Assembly (NCBI GenBank): GCA_000004985.1
Contig: GG739053.1
Strand: one strand, 5' to 3'
Origin: Naegleria gruberi
Lineage: Eukaryota
Length of the DNA: 8,914 nt
Shown: positions 1 through 8,914 of the stretch, piece by piece
Layout: the number at the start of each line of letters is the position of its first letter
Position numbering within the stretch: the stretch's first letter is position 1
Notes under the pieces: generated by a model
The model's database searches: none
Seen by the model: only the letters and a program-made list of their open reading frames with translations
Told to the model about the DNA's origin: nothing
Position numbers and translations under genes: made by a program

Positions 1-55
1 CCAACAGCTGAAGCAGCAGCAATTCCAGAAGTGCTGATGGATGTGGATGGAGCAA
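1..55 (+). CDS. 3' part of an internal coding exon of an unidentified + strand gene. Frame 1 reads PTAEAAAIPEVLMDVDGA, and the exon ends at a GTAAGT donor at 56-61.
   Basis: Open in frame 1 from the window edge. Strong GNN codon periodicity (gct gaa gca gca gca att cca gaa gtg ctg atg gat gtg gat gga gca). A consensus donor A|GTAAGT follows immediately at 56-61. GC content is higher than in the flanking AT-rich sequence. Confidence 0.35.
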
Positions 56-785
56 GTAAGTCAATGGTTGACATGTTTTTTTTTATTTGTTGATTTTTGT
101 GTGTTGATGGATGACTGATGGCAATATTGAAAAGTTTTTACATGACAGGAGATGGAAAAAGTACATTGTTGGAGGATGAACATCTTTTGCTTGAAGTGAA
201 AGTTTGAGAATGATAAGGATTTGTGTTATCCTAAAGTGATTATTTTTTGGAATCGAATGGTGTGAAATTTCATATGGAGGAAGAACCCATTCAATTTAAA
301 CAAATAATAATTATTAATTTTGTTTTAAGTTTAAACTACTATTTTTGAATGCATCTTCAATTCTCTTCAATTCTTTGCTATGCTTCAATGGTTTGCTTCT
401 TTCATTTCTTTCAAATTTTAAACAAACATAATAAAAGTAGATTATTTCTGAATTTTGTTGAATTCTGATTGAATATGAGGAATGGACTTGTTTCCGATTG
501 TAAATTACAAAATAAAGTGAAAATATTCTGAGTTGCTTAATAAGCGATCTCAATTCCGAGTTGTTAACAATTTTCCATGCTCAAAAAATTATTCGAAATG
601 TCTGGAAATAACAAGAAAGGAACTCCACAAAGAAAACAACACACTGTATCATCCCCATCTCATCCTAAACAAAGAGTAGACCCACTACTCCCTCCCAAAA
701 ACTGTTGCGCTCATTAATCTTTGGTAAGGGATTAATTTCTTAGTGAGGTTTTTATCAATATTTCGGAAACATTGTAAAATTTTCT

Positions 786-1088
786 TTATTTCACTAACAT
801 TTCTTTCTCATATTCGCATTTATCGTTGGTCTGACGTTTTTTTCTTATCCTTAGGATAATGATATTATCTCGGGACCTGCTCAATAAAGATTTATATTCT
901 TCAAAGCAGGTTCCAGGCTGTTTCACTATTAAGGTGAACAGTCTCTGAGCTTTAATACCCATTAGTATAATTACTTGTTCTCTTGTTTTTATTAATTTGC
1001 AATGTAACATAAGCTTTATGGTGCTTTTTAATGGTTCCTGGTAATTCAGAATAGTCCAAAGGATTTTATTTTCAATTATAATAGTCAA
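786..1088 (-). CDS. Hypothetical 100-codon ORF with a TTG alternative start and no recognisable domain. It may be an exon or a spurious ORF.
   Basis: Stop-bounded ORF from the six-frame track. Its first codon is TTG, not ATG. No motif is recognisable by eye. It lies downstream of the kinase gene on the same strand. Confidence 0.15.
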   Translation of the reverse strand: MTIIIENKILWTILNYQEPLKSTIKLMLHCKLIKTREQVIILMGIKAQRLFTLIVKQPGTCFEEYKSLLSRSRDNIIILRIRKKRQTNDKCEYEKEMLVK

Positions 1089-1205
1089 GTGAGAACAAGA
1101 GGAGCACTATTCTCGATAATACGGGTACAATTAACAGGATGCAAATATCAAATGAAGCATATGTTTCCCTTCCTGCTTCTAAGAGTGAATCAAATGAATG
1201 GACAT

Positions 1206-1255: not shown

Positions 1256-1272
1256 TTAGAATTTCTAATAGA

Positions 1273-1811
1273 TTATTCATAATTTTGAGATAATGAATAC
1301 ATTCGTCCTCTGTGTGTTGAACGAGATTGGATCATTGTAATTAAACACCTTCCAAGAATATCATTGAATAGCACCTTTTCCAAAAAAGAATTAGGATGGG
1401 AGCAAATAACCTCAAGATTTGGATCTATAAACTTGTCAATTTCCTTTCTAATAGATTGATGAAGCATGGCCTCTCCTTGTGGAGTACTTAATAACTTGAA
1501 AAAGTAATTTTTACCAACTCCAAATAAACAAGATGAACCAGAATCTTCATTCGTTGATATAATACTCAATGTTCTGTTGCAGATCATTTTCATTAAGACA
1601 CATCCCATTGAGTAAGTGTCACAATTTTTTGAGATTTTGAAATTTTCCGTTTGTTTGCCTTCTTCCTCATCATAAACCTCTGGAGCAAGATATTCCCATG
1701 TCCCTATATTCACTGTTATTGAGTGGTTGGATTGAATAACTTTGGAATTGTCAAAATCAATGAGTTTGGCATGTCCTTCATTGTTGATTATTACATTTGC
1801 CAACTTTAAAT
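1273..1811 (-). CDS. Protein kinase (eukaryotic ePK, Ser/Thr-type), 3' terminal exon. Encodes the catalytic loop (H-R)DLKLANVII, DFD in place of DFG at 1750-1758, GTWEYLAPEV (subdomain VIII) and DTYSMGCV (subdomain IX), then a C-terminal tail. The TAA stop is at 1273-1275.
   Basis: The kinase subdomain motifs appear in canonical order in the minus-strand translation. The exon starts directly after the intron acceptor (..ttttgtaaag|AT TTA AAG TTG GCA AAT GTA..). The frame runs to a TAA that sits 18 nt from the 50-N gap. Confidence 0.8.
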
Positions 1812-1854
1812 CTTTACAAAATTTCAGTATTGATTTTGAAAACAATAAACATAC
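1812..1854 (-). other. 43-nt spliceosomal intron of the kinase gene, with a GTATGT donor and an AAAG acceptor. It is phase 1 and splits the Asp codon of HRD (g|at).
   Basis: The minus strand reads cac aga g|gtatgtttattgttttcaaaatcaatactgaaattttgtaaag|at tta aag ttg gca aat. Removing these 43 nt restores the canonical catalytic loop HRDLKLAN. The unspliced read-through instead gives HRGMFIVFKINTEIL* and loses the catalytic Asp. Confidence 0.8.
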
Positions 1855-2774
1855 CTCTGTGTGTGAAATTTAGATTATGCAAACTGATGACACCCTCAAG
1901 AACTTCAGTAAAGTACTGTAAAACTTCAATCAAATCTTGAGTGGATAAGCAATGCTCCAAATTTGAATAATTTTGGTGCATTTCTGACATTACATGATCC
2001 AAAGGAGATCCCATTTCCATAATTAAATAGCTATACTTGCTATTATGCAACTCATAAAAATTACATTCAAATGTTCTGACAATACCCTTCAAATTTGGTG
2101 TTTTCATAAAGTTAAATAATTTCTCAGTTCTTTCTGGTTGCTCTTCTGGAGTAATATTCACTTTTAAAACTACTATTTGTTCAAGTTGTGTGTGAAAGCA
2201 TTTGAAGACAATTCCCTGAGCTCCTTTTCCTATTTTGGATAAAGGAATCAAGTAAGGGAATTTTTGAAGTAGCATTTGGATATATCTCATGTCAAGGTCA
2301 GTACCATGTATATTGTCAATTATACTGACAAGTGAGTTAAAGGATGGGAAATCATTGGAAGAAACCCATTCTTTTATGAATCTAATAACTGTAGATCGTT
2401 TAAACACTTCCAATCTTAATTTTGATGACAGTTTCAAAACACTTTCCTTAAACGTGGAATATAAAACACTTCCACCATCTTTAACAAATTGATTCAAGTA
2501 ATTGGAAAGGAAACATAACTCATTCTCCCCTATTGGAATCTCTTGATCAAATCTCACATAATCAATTACCCAATTATTCTTAATCAAAGAACTAATTCTC
2601 TGAAGAAATGCATAGACAACTACCAATGATTCATCATAGCGTTTGTTAATTAAGAATCTTCCTCCTTCAAATGTTATCTGCAATCGATTAATGTATCTAT
2701 TGAAAACTTTATCCAAATCAGAGGCATATTTCAATGTTGTTTCGTCAATAATCTTATCGATATCGTATATCCAC
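1855..2774 (-). CDS. Protein kinase, upstream exon. It holds an unrecognised N-terminal region of about 170 aa, then the Gly-rich loop IGKGAQGIV (about 2213-2233), the VAIK-type lysine in VVLKV (K at 2162-2164), alphaC Glu (TEKLFNFM), the hinge YLIMEMG, and the start of the catalytic loop LHNLNFTH-R. It is 5'-partial. The frame is open up to 2803 and the gene continues into the large gap.
   Basis: 920-nt continuous minus-strand frame with kinase subdomains I-VIa in order. The ORF track's 'M' at 2732-2734 is TTG, not ATG. The frame stays open upstream to a TGA at 2804-2806. A possible 40-nt intron lies at 2775-2814 (GTAAGT donor, weak AAAAG acceptor), so the 5' boundary is uncertain. Confidence 0.8.
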
Positions 2775-2814
2775 CTTTTACAGGTAAGAAAAATAGAAAT
2801 TCTTCAAAACTTAC
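2775..2814 (-). other. Candidate 40-nt intron of the kinase gene: a GTAAGT donor on the minus strand next to the gap and a weak acceptor ctgtaaaag.
   Basis: The minus strand reads catatat|gtaagttttgaagaatttctatttttcttacctgtaaaag|gtggatatac. The donor is a perfect consensus. The acceptor is weak and 40 nt is at the lower limit for an intron. Confidence 0.25.
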
Positions 2815-2821
2815 ATATATG

Positions 2822-5800
2822 NNNNNNNNNNNNNNNNNNNNNNNNNNNNNNNNNNNNNNNNNNNNNNNNNNNNNNNNNNNNNNNNNNNNNNNNNNNNNNN
2901 NNNNNNNNNNNNNNNNNNNNNNNNNNNNNNNNNNNNNNNNNNNNNNNNNNNNNNNNNNNNNNNNNNNNNNNNNNNNNNNNNNNNNNNNNNNNNNNNNNNN
3001 NNNNNNNNNNNNNNNNNNNNNNNNNNNNNNNNNNNNNNNNNNNNNNNNNNNNNNNNNNNNNNNNNNNNNNNNNNNNNNNNNNNNNNNNNNNNNNNNNNNN
3101 NNNNNNNNNNNNNNNNNNNNNNNNNNNNNNNNNNNNNNNNNNNNNNNNNNNNNNNNNNNNNNNNNNNNNNNNNNNNNNNNNNNNNNNNNNNNNNNNNNNN
3201 NNNNNNNNNNNNNNNNNNNNNNNNNNNNNNNNNNNNNNNNNNNNNNNNNNNNNNNNNNNNNNNNNNNNNNNNNNNNNNNNNNNNNNNNNNNNNNNNNNNN
3301 NNNNNNNNNNNNNNNNNNNNNNNNNNNNNNNNNNNNNNNNNNNNNNNNNNNNNNNNNNNNNNNNNNNNNNNNNNNNNNNNNNNNNNNNNNNNNNNNNNNN
3401 NNNNNNNNNNNNNNNNNNNNNNNNNNNNNNNNNNNNNNNNNNNNNNNNNNNNNNNNNNNNNNNNNNNNNNNNNNNNNNNNNNNNNNNNNNNNNNNNNNNN
3501 NNNNNNNNNNNNNNNNNNNNNNNNNNNNNNNNNNNNNNNNNNNNNNNNNNNNNNNNNNNNNNNNNNNNNNNNNNNNNNNNNNNNNNNNNNNNNNNNNNNN
3601 NNNNNNNNNNNNNNNNNNNNNNNNNNNNNNNNNNNNNNNNNNNNNNNNNNNNNNNNNNNNNNNNNNNNNNNNNNNNNNNNNNNNNNNNNNNNNNNNNNNN
3701 NNNNNNNNNNNNNNNNNNNNNNNNNNNNNNNNNNNNNNNNNNNNNNNNNNNNNNNNNNNNNNNNNNNNNNNNNNNNNNNNNNNNNNNNNNNNNNNNNNNN
3801 NNNNNNNNNNNNNNNNNNNNNNNNNNNNNNNNNNNNNNNNNNNNNNNNNNNNNNNNNNNNNNNNNNNNNNNNNNNNNNNNNNNNNNNNNNNNNNNNNNNN
3901 NNNNNNNNNNNNNNNNNNNNNNNNNNNNNNNNNNNNNNNNNNNNNNNNNNNNNNNNNNNNNNNNNNNNNNNNNNNNNNNNNNNNNNNNNNNNNNNNNNNN
4001 NNNNNNNNNNNNNNNNNNNNNNNNNNNNNNNNNNNNNNNNNNNNNNNNNNNNNNNNNNNNNNNNNNNNNNNNNNNNNNNNNNNNNNNNNNNNNNNNNNNN
4101 NNNNNNNNNNNNNNNNNNNNNNNNNNNNNNNNNNNNNNNNNNNNNNNNNNNNNNNNNNNNNNNNNNNNNNNNNNNNNNNNNNNNNNNNNNNNNNNNNNNN
4201 NNNNNNNNNNNNNNNNNNNNNNNNNNNNNNNNNNNNNNNNNNNNNNNNNNNNNNNNNNNNNNNNNNNNNNNNNNNNNNNNNNNNNNNNNNNNNNNNNNNN
4301 NNNNNNNNNNNNNNNNNNNNNNNNNNNNNNNNNNNNNNNNNNNNNNNNNNNNNNNNNNNNNNNNNNNNNNNNNNNNNNNNNNNNNNNNNNNNNNNNNNNN
4401 NNNNNNNNNNNNNNNNNNNNNNNNNNNNNNNNNNNNNNNNNNNNNNNNNNNNNNNNNNNNNNNNNNNNNNNNNNNNNNNNNNNNNNNNNNNNNNNNNNNN
4501 NNNNNNNNNNNNNNNNNNNNNNNNNNNNNNNNNNNNNNNNNNNNNNNNNNNNNNNNNNNNNNNNNNNNNNNNNNNNNNNNNNNNNNNNNNNNNNNNNNNN
4601 NNNNNNNNNNNNNNNNNNNNNNNNNNNNNNNNNNNNNNNNNNNNNNNNNNNNNNNNNNNNNNNNNNNNNNNNNNNNNNNNNNNNNNNNNNNNNNNNNNNN
4701 NNNNNNNNNNNNNNNNNNNNNNNNNNNNNNNNNNNNNNNNNNNNNNNNNNNNNNNNNNNNNNNNNNNNNNNNNNNNNNNNNNNNNNNNNNNNNNNNNNNN
4801 NNNNNNNNNNNNNNNNNNNNNNNNNNNNNNNNNNNNNNNNNNNNNNNNNNNNNNNNNNNNNNNNNNNNNNNNNNNNNNNNNNNNNNNNNNNNNNNNNNNN
4901 NNNNNNNNNNNNNNNNNNNNNNNNNNNNNNNNNNNNNNNNNNNNNNNNNNNNNNNNNNNNNNNNNNNNNNNNNNNNNNNNNNNNNNNNNNNNNNNNNNNN
5001 NNNNNNNNNNNNNNNNNNNNNNNNNNNNNNNNNNNNNNNNNNNNNNNNNNNNNNNNNNNNNNNNNNNNNNNNNNNNNNNNNNNNNNNNNNNNNNNNNNNN
5101 NNNNNNNNNNNNNNNNNNNNNNNNNNNNNNNNNNNNNNNNNNNNNNNNNNNNNNNNNNNNNNNNNNNNNNNNNNNNNNNNNNNNNNNNNNNNNNNNNNNN
5201 NNNNNNNNNNNNNNNNNNNNNNNNNNNNNNNNNNNNNNNNNNNNNNNNNNNNNNNNNNNNNNNNNNNNNNNNNNNNNNNNNNNNNNNNNNNNNNNNNNNN
5301 NNNNNNNNNNNNNNNNNNNNNNNNNNNNNNNNNNNNNNNNNNNNNNNNNNNNNNNNNNNNNNNNNNNNNNNNNNNNNNNNNNNNNNNNNNNNNNNNNNNN
5401 NNNNNNNNNNNNNNNNNNNNNNNNNNNNNNNNNNNNNNNNNNNNNNNNNNNNNNNNNNNNNNNNNNNNNNNNNNNNNNNNNNNNNNNNNNNNNNNNNNNN
5501 NNNNNNNNNNNNNNNNNNNNNNNNNNNNNNNNNNNNNNNNNNNNNNNNNNNNNNNNNNNNNNNNNNNNNNNNNNNNNNNNNNNNNNNNNNNNNNNNNNNN
5601 NNNNNNNNNNNNNNNNNNNNNNNNNNNNNNNNNNNNNNNNNNNNNNNNNNNNNNNNNNNNNNNNNNNNNNNNNNNNNNNNNNNNNNNNNNNNNNNNNNNN
5701 NNNNNNNNNNNNNNNNNNNNNNNNNNNNNNNNNNNNNNNNNNNNNNNNNNNNNNNNNNNNNNNNNNNNNNNNNNNNNNNNNNNNNNNNNNNNNNNNNNNN

Positions 5801-6591
5801 NNNNNNNNNNNNNNNNNNNNNNNNNNNNNNNNNNNNNNNNNNNNNNNNNNNNNNNNNNNNNNNNNNNNNNNNNNNNNNNNNNNNNNNNNNNNNNNNNNNN
5901 NNNNNNNNNNNNNNNNNNNNNNNNNNNNNNNNNNNNNNNNNNNNNNNNNNNNNNNNNNNNNNNNNNNNNNNNNNNNNNNNNNNNNNNNNNNNNNNNNNNN
6001 NNNNNNNNNNNNNNNNNNNNNNNNNNNNNNNNNNNNNNNNNNNNNNNNNNNNNNNNNNNNNNNNNNNNNNNNNNNNNNNNNNNNNNNNNNNNNNNNNNNN
6101 NNNNNNNNNNNNNNNNNNNNNNNNNNNNNNNNNNNNNNNNNNNNNNNNNNNNNNNNNNNNNNNNNNNNNNNNNNNNNNNNNNNNNNNNNNNNNNNNNNNN
6201 NNNNNNNNNNNNNNNNNNNNNNNNNNNNNNNNNNNNNNNNNNNNNNNNNNNNNNNNNNNNNNNNNNNNNNNNNNNNNNNNNNNNNNNNNNNNNNNNNNNN
6301 NNNNNNNNNNNNNNNNNNNNNNNNNNNNNNNNNNNNNNNNNNNNNNNNNNNNNNNNNNNNNNNNNNNNNNNNNNNNNNNNNNNNNNNNNNNNNNNNNNNN
6401 NNNNNNNNNNNNNNNNNNNNNNNNNNNNNNNNNNNNNNNNNNNNNNNNNNNNNNNNNNNNNNNNNNNNNNNNNNNNNNNNNNNNNNNNNNNNNNNNNNNN
6501 NNNNNNNNNNNNNNNNNNNNNNNNNNNNNNNNNNNNNNNNNNNNNNNNNNNNNNNNNNNNNNNNNNNNNNNNNNNNNNNNNNNNNNNNNNN
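2822..6591. other. Assembly gap of 3770 N.
   Basis: Uninterrupted n run. Both flanks carry truncated coding sequence: the 5' part of the kinase gene on the minus strand to the left, and a + strand terminal exon to the right. Confidence 0.98.
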
Positions 6592-6593
6592 TT

Positions 6594-6659
6594 GAATCTT
6601 GGGTTGTTGGTGGTGTTGATGTTGGTTTCTCTGATGAAGGTTCTTCTTACATTTTTTAA
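6594..6659 (+). CDS. Last 21 codons plus TAA stop of an unidentified + strand gene whose body lies in the gap (…ESWVVGGVDVGFSDEGSSYIF*).
   Basis: Strong GNN periodicity (gtt gtt ggt ggt gtt gat gtt ggt ttc tct gat gaa ggt). TAA at 6657-6659. A canonical AATAAA follows 12 nt downstream. Confidence 0.4.
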   Translation, partial: ESWVVGGVDVGFSDEGSSYIF

Positions 6660-6670
6660 TATTTAAAATT

Positions 6671-6676
6671 AATAAA
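6671..6676 (+). promoter_or_regulatory. AATAAA polyadenylation signal for the gene ending at 6659.
   Basis: Hexamer aataaa 12 nt after the stop codon, in an AT-rich 3' flank. Confidence 0.4.
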
Positions 6677-7038
6677 AAATGTATTAAACTTCTCCTTCAT
6701 CAAACGGGAGAAGAAATCAGCAACCATTAGAACCCGATTCATGTCCAATTCTTGCAACAACAATATTGATATCGGATCACATATTTCAAGATCAACGACG
6801 AATGAACTTTTACTACTAGATTCATAGAAAACAACCTAAGATTCAAGAACAATAATTTATTATTTTAATAAAATACTTTTGTGTTTTCACAAATATTTGT
6901 GCAAGATAAAATGGTCTGTCTACACAAACACAAACACAAATTTGTGAAAATATTTTAGCACAATTTAGCACAAATAGACTTCCGGAAAAAGTTTTGCTAA
7001 AAGTCGACTTTTTTAAGGTACTTTCACGCTAATTTGCA

Positions 7039-7071
7039 AAAAGGCGCCTAAAAGGTGCCTAAAAGGTGCCT
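7039..7071 (+). repeat. Three tandem copies of the 11-bp unit aaaaggYgcct inside the left arm of the element.
   Basis: aaaaggcgcct aaaaggtgcct aaaaggtgcct, followed by ttttt. Confidence 0.7.
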
Positions 7072-7292
7072 TTTTTACCTAAAAACTACTTGAAACACAT
7101 CCAAAGTTTGTTCAAGAAAATCTTGAGCAACTTTCAAACTGTTTTCAAACAATTCCTCAAGAATGATTAATTATTTCTCAACCAAATTCTCAAAACGCTC
7201 AAGTATTTGCTGAAAAAACCCCAAGGGCCTTCAAACTTCTGAACTCACTCTCTTTCTTAACTATATCCTTTTCCAAAAAATCCACCAATTCC

Positions 7293-7697
7293 TTAAGAGA
7301 TCCAAGGTTTTTGAATGTCACCATCTCGGGTCACTGTAGTTTTGATGGATTTTTTTACATCAATCACGAAATCTTTCGAAAGCTCTGGTCTTTTGAGCTC
7401 CTCAATTTTTCTTGGCATGATGATTGTTTTCTTTTTGATAAGGTTCAGGTTTTTTCTCTTTATGGGTGGAGTGATGTTCAAATCAGATCTCTTCCTCTTC
7501 TGGATTTTTAATTGTTTCACACTTTTTTCTTGTTCCTGTTTCAAGCTTAATTCAGAATATGGTGTTTCTTTAAGATTTTCTTCCACTTCCTCAACATCTT
7601 CCGTTCCATCAACAATAGAATCAGCAAGATTAGGGAACCTTTCAACTTCAGCAAATGCAGTAAAGAAAAGGTTGACATCAGGAAAAAGAAAGCTTCA
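7293..7697 (-). CDS. Lys/Glu-rich low-complexity ORF open stop to stop (…DVEEVEENLKETPYSELSLKQEQEKSVKQLKIQKRKRSDLNITPPIKRKNLNLIKKK…). It may be an exon or an element-encoded peptide. It has no ATG at its 5' end, and the track's 'M' is GTG.
   Basis: About 134 codons without a stop in AT-rich DNA. It carries basic KRKR and KKK runs resembling a nuclear localisation signal. The overlapping + strand ORFs are poly-Phe/Leu, as expected for the antisense of K/E codons. No domain is recognisable. Confidence 0.25.
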
Positions 7698-8006
7698 ATA
7701 AATGTGCAGGAAAGGTTTAAACATTTCTTGAATTATGCTCAAACAAATTTCAAAAATTGCTCAAACATTTTTCAAACCACTTTTTTAAAAAGGCGCCTTT
7801 TTATTTCTTTTTGACTTTTCCGGAAGTCTAATATTCACAAAAAATTTGTGTAATTAATTTTTTATTTGTGAATAGTGATAAAATGCTCTCATTGTGGAAA
7901 TTAATTTTTAGTAATGTACTTCACCAATGTCTTTTAGTACTATTTAAATAGATAATAAACATCCTATTTATTATCAGATTTTCGTCCTGTTGTCAATTTA
8001 CGGAAG

Positions 8007-8088
8007 ATTGTCATAATTATGTGGGGGTGGGTGGGTCGTGAAAAAAGGATGTCCATAATTACGTGGTCCAGAGTGGGTCAGAAAGTAG
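8007..8088 (+). repeat. Tandem direct duplication of two units of about 41 bp (gattgtcataattatgtggg…gtgggtcgtgaaa and gatgtccataattacgtgg…gtgggtcagaaa).
   Basis: Unit 1 is 8007-8047 and unit 2 is 8048-8088. They share about 75% identity, with the cores tgtc(c)ataattaYgtgg and gtgggtc. They lie about 560-640 bp upstream of the ATG at 8644. Confidence 0.5.
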
Positions 8089-8643
8089 AGCAGAGCAAAA
8101 ACAAAAATTGGCAAAAGTAGAGCCGAAGGTTTATTAGCCAAGGATATTCTCACTGAAACATCACGAACAGCATTCAGAGGTGCAACGAAGGATCTAAATA
8201 TATTGAAAGATCTGATTCAGGAAAACAGTCCTTCGAACTGAATTCAATGAACCCAATTCGAGTAAATTCAGATGCCTGCCCAACTACTTGATTTAGTTCA
8301 GACAGAATTTGGAGAACACTATGTGGACGGATTCGTGAATTAACCACAACAATTCAGTTCAACTCATGGATAGAGAACGACACATTCTTGAATCCTTGGG
8401 AACAAAATCTAACGAGTTATTGTGTTCCTCCTTTGGGCTAATTTCTCAAGCTCTAGTTCACTGCAAGTCAAAAATTAGCAAAATCTCCAACATTCTTTTG
8501 GTCAAGTTTTGCTTCTGATTATTGATGATATTGATTAATAGACCAAACTGGAAACCGATTCTGAAACTATTTTCCCTGAACGCCGTAAAATCTGTTATCC
8601 GAAACTCACGAATGTCAAGTAACCATTCAACATCCGTTAAAAA

Positions 8644-8914
8644 ATGTCGCAACTTGATGTCAGCTCACATAATGCAAGAGATTCGTCTATTCCACTCCGT
8701 GCTACTACTTCTACCCTTCTAAAACAATCAACACTCGAGCAATCGTGTGAGAAAGTAAACGAAAGTTCATTAATCATTGAAACATTTCCTTCCCAACATT
8801 CTATTGGAAATCAAACACGAAAGGTTCATTCTCCACGTTCAGATCAAACTCTTTCCGAAGAAGAAACAAATTCCATCATTTGGAAAGAAAGAAATGACGA
8901 AATGTTCGAACAAA
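8644..8914 (+). CDS. 5' part of a + strand gene, 90 codons open to the window end (MSQLDVSSHNARDSSIPLRATTSTLLKQSTLEQSCEKVNESSLIIETFPSQHSIGNQTRKVHSPRSDQTLSEEETNSIIWKERNDEMFEQ…). It encodes a Ser/Thr-rich protein of unknown function.
   Basis: ATG in a nematode-type context (gttaaaaaATGtcg). The frame has no stop for the remaining 271 nt. It is absent from the ORF track only because no in-frame stop occurs before the window end. Codon usage is not AT-biased like the flanks. Confidence 0.4.
   Translation, partial: MSQLDVSSHNARDSSIPLRATTSTLLKQSTLEQSCEKVNESSLIIETFPSQHSIGNQTRKVHSPRSDQTLSEEETNSIIWKERNDEMFEQ

Follow-up and report, generated by a model that had tools for sequence, protein, structure and literature searches.

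A probable non-autonomous DNA transposon with short terminal inverted repeats in Naegleria gruberi

What is the palindrome-rich DNA that separates two divergent genes on a short scaffold of Naegleria gruberi? A preliminary description of this DNA had read positions 6884-7877 as a foldback or MITE-like transposon relic, with a structured regulatory or origin-like region as the alternative, and had placed it in a nematode. The window that we analysed is a whole 8914-bp scaffold of the N. gruberi reference assembly (G+C approximately 32%), which contains two runs of N (1206-1255, 50 N, and 2822-6591, 3770 N). Its host is not a nematode, as the first exon (1856-2764) of the protein kinase gene NAEGRDRAFT_76621 (1260-2820, minus strand, with a 43-nt GT..AG intron at approximately 1813-1855) shows 100% identity to the 319-aa protein XP_002668465.1 / EFC35721.1 of the heterolobosean amoeba Naegleria gruberi. 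The words ttgtttcac and ctgtttcaag at 7515-7545 look like the upstream motif of nematode piRNAs, a likeness that is due to chance, the host being Naegleria.

The DNA in question lies between a minus-strand gene and a plus-strand gene. On the left, positions 6592-6850 (minus strand) hold a probable gene fragment, in which an exon end near 6690 is followed by an intron of 45 nt (gtttaa...tgtaag) and by a Ser/Thr/Pro-rich exon that runs into the N gap; this fragment has no Pfam match. On the right, two direct repeat pairs are found upstream of a plus-strand ORF that starts at 8644, namely CATAATTAYGTGG..TGGGTC (8012-8037 / 8054-8079, 77%) and AAAGTAGAGCMGA (8082-8094 / 8114-8126), and the direct repeat pairs within 7960-8130 may be promoter elements. 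Exact look-ups of two right-flank ORFs (8458-8652 and 8174-8347) returned no record in the protein collection, and Rfam and tRNA scans of the whole window returned nothing. A metagenome contig (L002, from ERZ929261) is 99.4% identical to window positions 1256-2821 and could fill part of both N gaps: its positions 1-1154 reach 1154 bp into the 3770-N gap, and its positions 2721-2849 extend 129 bp into or past the 50-N gap, these last 129 bp being unlike window positions 1-1205.

A repeated unit of 856 bp and its second copy

The extent of the element is given by comparison with a second copy. The longest internal frame of the region (7293-7694) has a sole relative among 5.8 billion proteins, P0001, which is the same ORF in that second copy, and this relative led to its contig, L001, a 1701-nt Logan contig from a short-read assembly of the metagenomic run ERR1078381 (project PRJEB11402). 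Aligned to the opposite strand of the window (7830-6975), positions 1-856 of L001 are identical at 846 of 856 bases (98.8%) without a single indel. The repeated, presumably mobile unit thus occupies 6975-7830 of the window, and we assign it to the minus strand, that of its longest sense ORF. The boundaries at 6884 and 7877 that had been proposed earlier are accordingly replaced by 6975 and 7830. The pair ataaaat/gataaaat, formerly put forward as a weak candidate for a target-site duplication, lies 90 bp and 47 bp outside these ends and is not supported.

The similarity between the two copies stops exactly after ...CCGGAAGTCTA (...GTCTA). Beyond this point, L001 continues with 30 nt of unrelated DNA and then with the 3′ end of an eIF2D-like gene with WH_eIF2D and SUI1 domains (L001 889-1701, minus strand), such that the second copy lies 30 bp downstream of the stop codon of this gene. 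At the corresponding position the window carries CACAAA-rich DNA instead, and BLAST of the window flanks against the L001 flank found nothing in common. The first bases of L001 are TAGACTTCCGG, so that the contig terminates exactly at TAGAC, as it should if the assembly graph forked where a repeat meets differing flanks.

The ENA assembly of ERR1078381 also holds the orthologue of the kinase locus of the window, the contig L002 mentioned above, with 1557 of 1567 positions identical (99.4%). An N. gruberi strain was therefore present in the sample, which argues that both copies come from N. gruberi. Used as a protein query, the eIF2D-like neighbour had no relative in the database at E <= 1e-20, and the collection lacks its 270-aa fragment. 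Such a result is surprising in a strain that is 99.4% identical to the annotated reference and casts a small doubt on the organism from which L001 derives; the gene may be unannotated in NEG-M, or it may have been overlooked by the search.

The two copies of the element differ by 1.2%, about twice the 0.6% seen at the orthologous kinase locus. All 10 differences fall within element positions 262-657 (window 7174-7569), i.e., in the central 396 bp, such that the terminal 261 bp and 199 bp are identical between the copies (P ~0.006 under uniform placement, calculated post hoc). The difference-free ends are compatible with cis-acting ends being kept intact. Further copies were sought by scanning JGI metagenomes, IMG/VR and prokaryotic genomes with the ends of the element, and metagenomes with an internal 37-mer, with 0 hits in either case. 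Two copies were seen, the window and L001, in unrelated contexts with unrelated flanks.

Thus, we have an 856-bp unit that is bounded by a perfect 15-bp inverted repeat, that occurs in at least two unrelated contexts, and whose identity between copies ends exactly at these repeats. From this it is very probable that 6975-7830 is a TIR-bounded mobile element, namely a class II DNA transposon of N. gruberi (cut-and-paste, TIR) that is non-autonomous and of which the window holds one copy. The suggestion of a non-autonomous DNA transposon in the preliminary description is thereby supported by the 98.8% identical copy in a different context. The presence of two near-identical copies in different contexts is furthermore a hint of recent activity.

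Ends, subterminal motifs and internal frames

The left terminal inverted repeat (TIR), TAGACTTCCGGAAAA (6975-6989, plus strand), is 100% complementary to positions 7816-7830 and identical in L001. Its counterpart, TTTTCCGGAAGTCTA (7816-7830, minus strand), was defined by strict alignment as well as by the comparison with L001. The two TIRs sit at the exact ends of the repeated unit, and a perfect inverted repeat of 15 nt arose in 1 of 300 shuffled versions of the region. The initial TA of the left TIR could be a target-site duplication rather than part of the TIR.

Could the inverted repeat extend further inwards, as a foldback element would require? When 6870-7100 is aligned locally, under lenient settings, with the reverse complement of 7690-7900, the score is 192; dinucleotide shuffles give 178 +/- 21, and 76 of 300 reach 192. 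A comparison in direct orientation is no better. Strict alignment of the arms recovers a single perfect inverted repeat, the 15 nt of the TIRs. Folding points in the same direction, since 6975-7830 folds as single-stranded DNA with an unremarkable z = -2.0, and 2 of 20 shuffles fold as well. With arms that align at chance level there are no long inverted arms, and we therefore reject the foldback interpretation. The element does resemble foldback elements (FB of Drosophila, nematode and plant foldback elements, palindromic MITEs) in its many short palindromes and in having subrepeats near both ends, but it departs from them in that the inverted repeat makes up 15 bp of 856.

Inside the TIRs, short motifs are found at both ends. 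On the left, the perfect palindrome AAAAGTCGACTTTT (6999-7012) contains the half-site AAAAGTCRA, which recurs beside the right TIR (7811-7819, minus strand). It is followed by three tandem 11-bp units, AAAAGG(C/T)GCCT (7039-7071, plus strand; period 11, 3.0 copies, 95% matches), which are candidate transposase-binding sites. On the right, two inverted copies of a AAAGGCGCC unit form the perfect 18-bp palindrome TAAAAAGGCGCCTTTTTA (7786-7803). The shared motif AAAGGYGCC has 5 matches where 0.02 are expected, and TTCCGGAA occurs twice (0.07 expected). In neither copy do the subterminal motifs occur outside the element. Class II elements usually build their transposase-binding ends in this way, as a TIR accompanied by short subterminal repeats of mixed orientation.

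All palindrome cores of the element (CCGG, TCGA, GCGC) contain CpG in otherwise AT-rich surroundings. Of the tandem units at 7039-7071, the first has GGCGCC and the second and third have GGTGCC, a CpG-to-TpG difference; the GGTGCC variants are CpG-to-TpG derivatives of GGCGCC. The perfect short palindromes noted in the preliminary description are real and non-random (6888-6901, 6935-6946, 6999-7012 and 7786-7803), and the mirrored block order that it reported is real for the TTCCGGAA block and for the GGCGCC/GTCGAC blocks. The palindrome cttccggaag, on the other hand, is absent as written: the arms carry ACTTCCGGAAAA and TTTTCCGGAAGT, and the palindrome common to them is the 8-mer TTCCGGAA.

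Further inwards are two blocks of TCAAAC words, one on the left (7128-7154, plus strand), which forms a direct repeat with 74% identity to 7744-7770, and one on the right (7738-7777, plus strand; period 11, 3.5 copies). Both have the same orientation. The inner arms had been described as filled with YTCAAAC words, some of them direct rather than inverted. In the window as a whole these words are not enriched (7 against 3.65 expected, a count reached by 18 of 200 shuffles), but 6 of the 7 do lie inside the element, and all are on the plus strand.

The longest internal open frame (7293-7694, minus strand) has 133 codons, is lysine-rich with NLS-like lysine runs, and contains no ATG before codon 93. 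Between the two copies, 6 of 6 codon differences in this frame are nonsynonymous, and it is probably not a functional gene. An ORF of 128 codons that overlaps it in antisense (7315-7701, plus strand), with 5 of 6 codon differences nonsynonymous, is probably spurious. Neither frame has a Pfam match, and exact look-ups of five ORFs of the element (7315-7701, 7199-7324, 7547-7678, 7704-7814 and 7066-7170) returned no record in the collection. The codon differences between the two copies give no sign of purifying selection on the internal frames. Thus, by Pfam, by the protein collection and by the nonsynonymous substitutions, no functional transposase was detected inside the element.

How might such an element move? 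A transposase encoded elsewhere in the genome would recognise the TIRs together with the subterminal repeats and mobilise the element in trans. The subterminal repeats so recognised may be AAAAGTCRA beside each TIR and the AAAGGYGCC units, three in tandem on the left and an inverted pair on the right. The transposase would excise the element and then reinsert it, with a TA dinucleotide as the probable target. The open frames inside the element would in this case be relics or chance frames that do not code for a transposase.

The palindromic flanks and competing readings

The DNA that abuts the element is itself unusual. The left flank (6878-6974) is rich in CACAAA/TTTGTG, contains the two perfect palindromes CACAAATATTTGTG (6888-6901) and CACAAATTTGTG (6935-6946) as well as the simple repeats (ACACAA)3 and (TTTAGCACAA)2, and is absent from L001. 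The right flank (7831-7877) has the palindrome CACAAAAAATTTGTG plus one more TTTGTG half-site. A split direct repeat, TATTTGTG(N3-7)GATAAAATG(G/C)TCT, i.e., TATTTGTG..GATAAAATGSTCT, is found at 6894-6917 and 7863-7889 and nowhere else; it brackets the element plus its CACAAA-rich flanks, and could have arisen by local duplication or mark where an older element ended.

The strongest competitor to an element with ends at 6975 and 7830 follows from these flanks. It holds that the entire block 6884-7877 is a foldback or MITE with CACAAA...TTTGTG termini, of which 6975-7830 would be a conserved core or a nested insertion. Several observations speak for it. CACAAA/TTTGTG words cluster on both sides of the 856-bp unit, with 11 of the 14 in the window located at 6878-6974 and 7836-7870, and CACAAA(N0-4)TTTGTG occurs three times where 0.01 is expected, although four copies had originally been claimed and we count three full palindromes. 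When the element is removed, the joined flanks (6860-6974 + 7831-7900) fold strongly (-26.8 kcal/mol, z = -5.3 relative to mononucleotide shuffles), which implies that the insertion took place near the centre of a palindromic tract. The split direct repeat, with its two occurrences around the block, likewise makes an older palindromic element that was hit by an insertion possible.

However, the flank of L001 diverges right after GTCTA, and the contig ends at TAGAC on the other side, such that the CACAAA...TTTGTG motifs are located in the flanks of the window copy and are missing from the flank of the second copy; they are not the termini, as had been proposed. The CACAAA..TTTGTG palindrome is also missing from the approximately 13 kb of other loci represented by L001-L003. 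In addition, alignment of the whole arms gives no more than chance similarity, and the left flank is in part plain tandem repeat. We thus regard an element that spans the whole block as improbable and prefer to place the ends at 6975 and 7830. The CACAAA...TTTGTG palindromes would then be part of the palindromic, simple-repeat-rich intergenic DNA that received this insertion, which could itself be an older small element or else a favoured target prone to forming hairpins.

Another reading takes 6975-7830 for a duplicated small cellular gene, or for a regulatory or origin-like region, in which the palindromes would be transcription-factor sites of a promoter and a terminator around the minus-strand ORF. 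The location in a divergent intergenic region, the 133-codon open frame with its NLS-like lysine runs and the palindromic, CpG-cored motifs, which look like dimeric factor sites, would all suit such a function. Yet in two unrelated contexts the edges of the duplication fall on the exact outer bases of a perfect 15-bp inverted repeat, and the second of these contexts is the 3′ region of another gene. No ATG is found in the first 92 codons of the frame, its one homologue is the other copy, it is without a Pfam match, and its substitutions are nonsynonymous throughout. This makes a gene or regulatory region very unlikely, and given the evidence for a transposon an origin-like or regulatory function need not be invoked.

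Least probable of all is that the second context is an assembly artefact, with L001 being a chimeric metagenomic contig or stemming from another organism and the element being single-copy: L001 does come from a short-read metagenome assembly and its eIF2D-like gene is without a database relative at the threshold used, but a chimera would hardly be joined precisely on the outermost base of one TIR while the contig also stops precisely at the opposite TIR, the 10 private differences of the L001 copy mean that it is not the window locus, and the same run contains N. gruberi at 99.4% identity.

Junctions, affinities and meaning for Naegleria

To which superfamily does the transposon belong? With a slash marking the edge of the element, the junctions in the window read ...AGCACAAA/TAGAC...GTCTA/ATATTCAC..., and the junction in L001 reads GTCTA/ATAAAATT. 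Direct repeats of 3-10 bp are lacking at the window junctions. All three junctions that can be seen carry TA; since these two bases open TAGAC and close GTCTA, a TA duplication and the bases of the TIR are inseparable. TA is thus the sole possible target-site duplication, and if it is one, the TIRs shrink to 13 bp, GACTTCCGGAAAA.

Our leading guess, which is a tentative one, is a TA-targeting, Tc1/mariner-like origin of the element. Like Tc1/mariner (ITm) derivatives, among them the Stowaway-like MITEs that insert at TA, it has compatible junctions (A/TAGAC ... GTCTA/A) and compatible 13-bp TIRs. In contrast to these, the TA may simply belong to the TIR of the element, and comparison of the internal frames with Pfam found no DD(E/D) transposase. 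Furthermore, the TIR appears unlike the classical Tc1/mariner ends of the CAGT or TTAGG type. Elements of the ISL2EU type, with 2-bp duplications, fit equally well.

The lack of a direct duplication of 3, 4, 8 or 9 bp argues against several other superfamilies. For hAT, an 8-bp duplication is required, and AGCACAAA on the left differs from ATATTCAC on the right. PIF/Harbinger makes a 3-bp TWA duplication; with ends at GAC...GTC the flanking triplets would be ATA and TAA, which are not a direct repeat. Mutator is rejected on the length of the target duplication, as the junctions have no 9-bp direct duplication. Kolobok, a DNA transposon superfamily known in Naegleria and thus sharing the genus with our element, has TTAA duplications and 5′-RR...YY-3′ ends (PMC9587614). 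A TTAA duplication is required for Kolobok and piggyBac alike (PMC9587614), whereas the flanks here are CAAA and ATAT (CAAA/TAGAC and GTCTA/ATAT).

With respect to its general organisation, the 856-bp element is an ordinary non-autonomous TIR DNA transposon. It shares with MITEs and other non-autonomous TIR elements (class II, subclass 1) the short perfect TIRs, the short subterminal repeats in direct and inverted orientation, the AT-rich interior without a transposase, and the occurrence of near-identical copies at unrelated, gene-proximal intergenic sites. Unlike typical MITEs, it is at or above their usual size limit (~800 bp), and it has kept a long, apparently unconstrained open frame of 133 codons. 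A high copy number is furthermore a defining trait of MITEs; this element is known from at least two copies.

N. gruberi is reported to be poor in transposable elements, with 0.28% of the genome assigned to them in one survey (bioRxiv 10.64898/2026.06.24.734286). Only a small fraction of its repeats has been assigned to known transposable elements, and young ones are preferentially methylated (PMC12344493). We found no description of this 856-bp element in the literature. To a genome with few classified repeats it adds a TIR element whose exact ends, 15-bp TIR and subterminal motifs are defined, and it contributes little beyond annotation. Possible uses lie in strain typing or, in an organism for which genetic tools are scarce, in tracking down the responsible transposase.

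A more far-reaching interpretation, which we consider unlikely, is that the element belongs to a DNA-transposon family not yet described and has been active recently, and that its transposase recognises the CpG-centred palindromes (TTCCGGAA, GTCGAC and GGCGCC) and prefers hairpin-prone palindromic targets. If this were true, the element would be polymorphic between strains and might serve as a marker or tagging tool in Naegleria.
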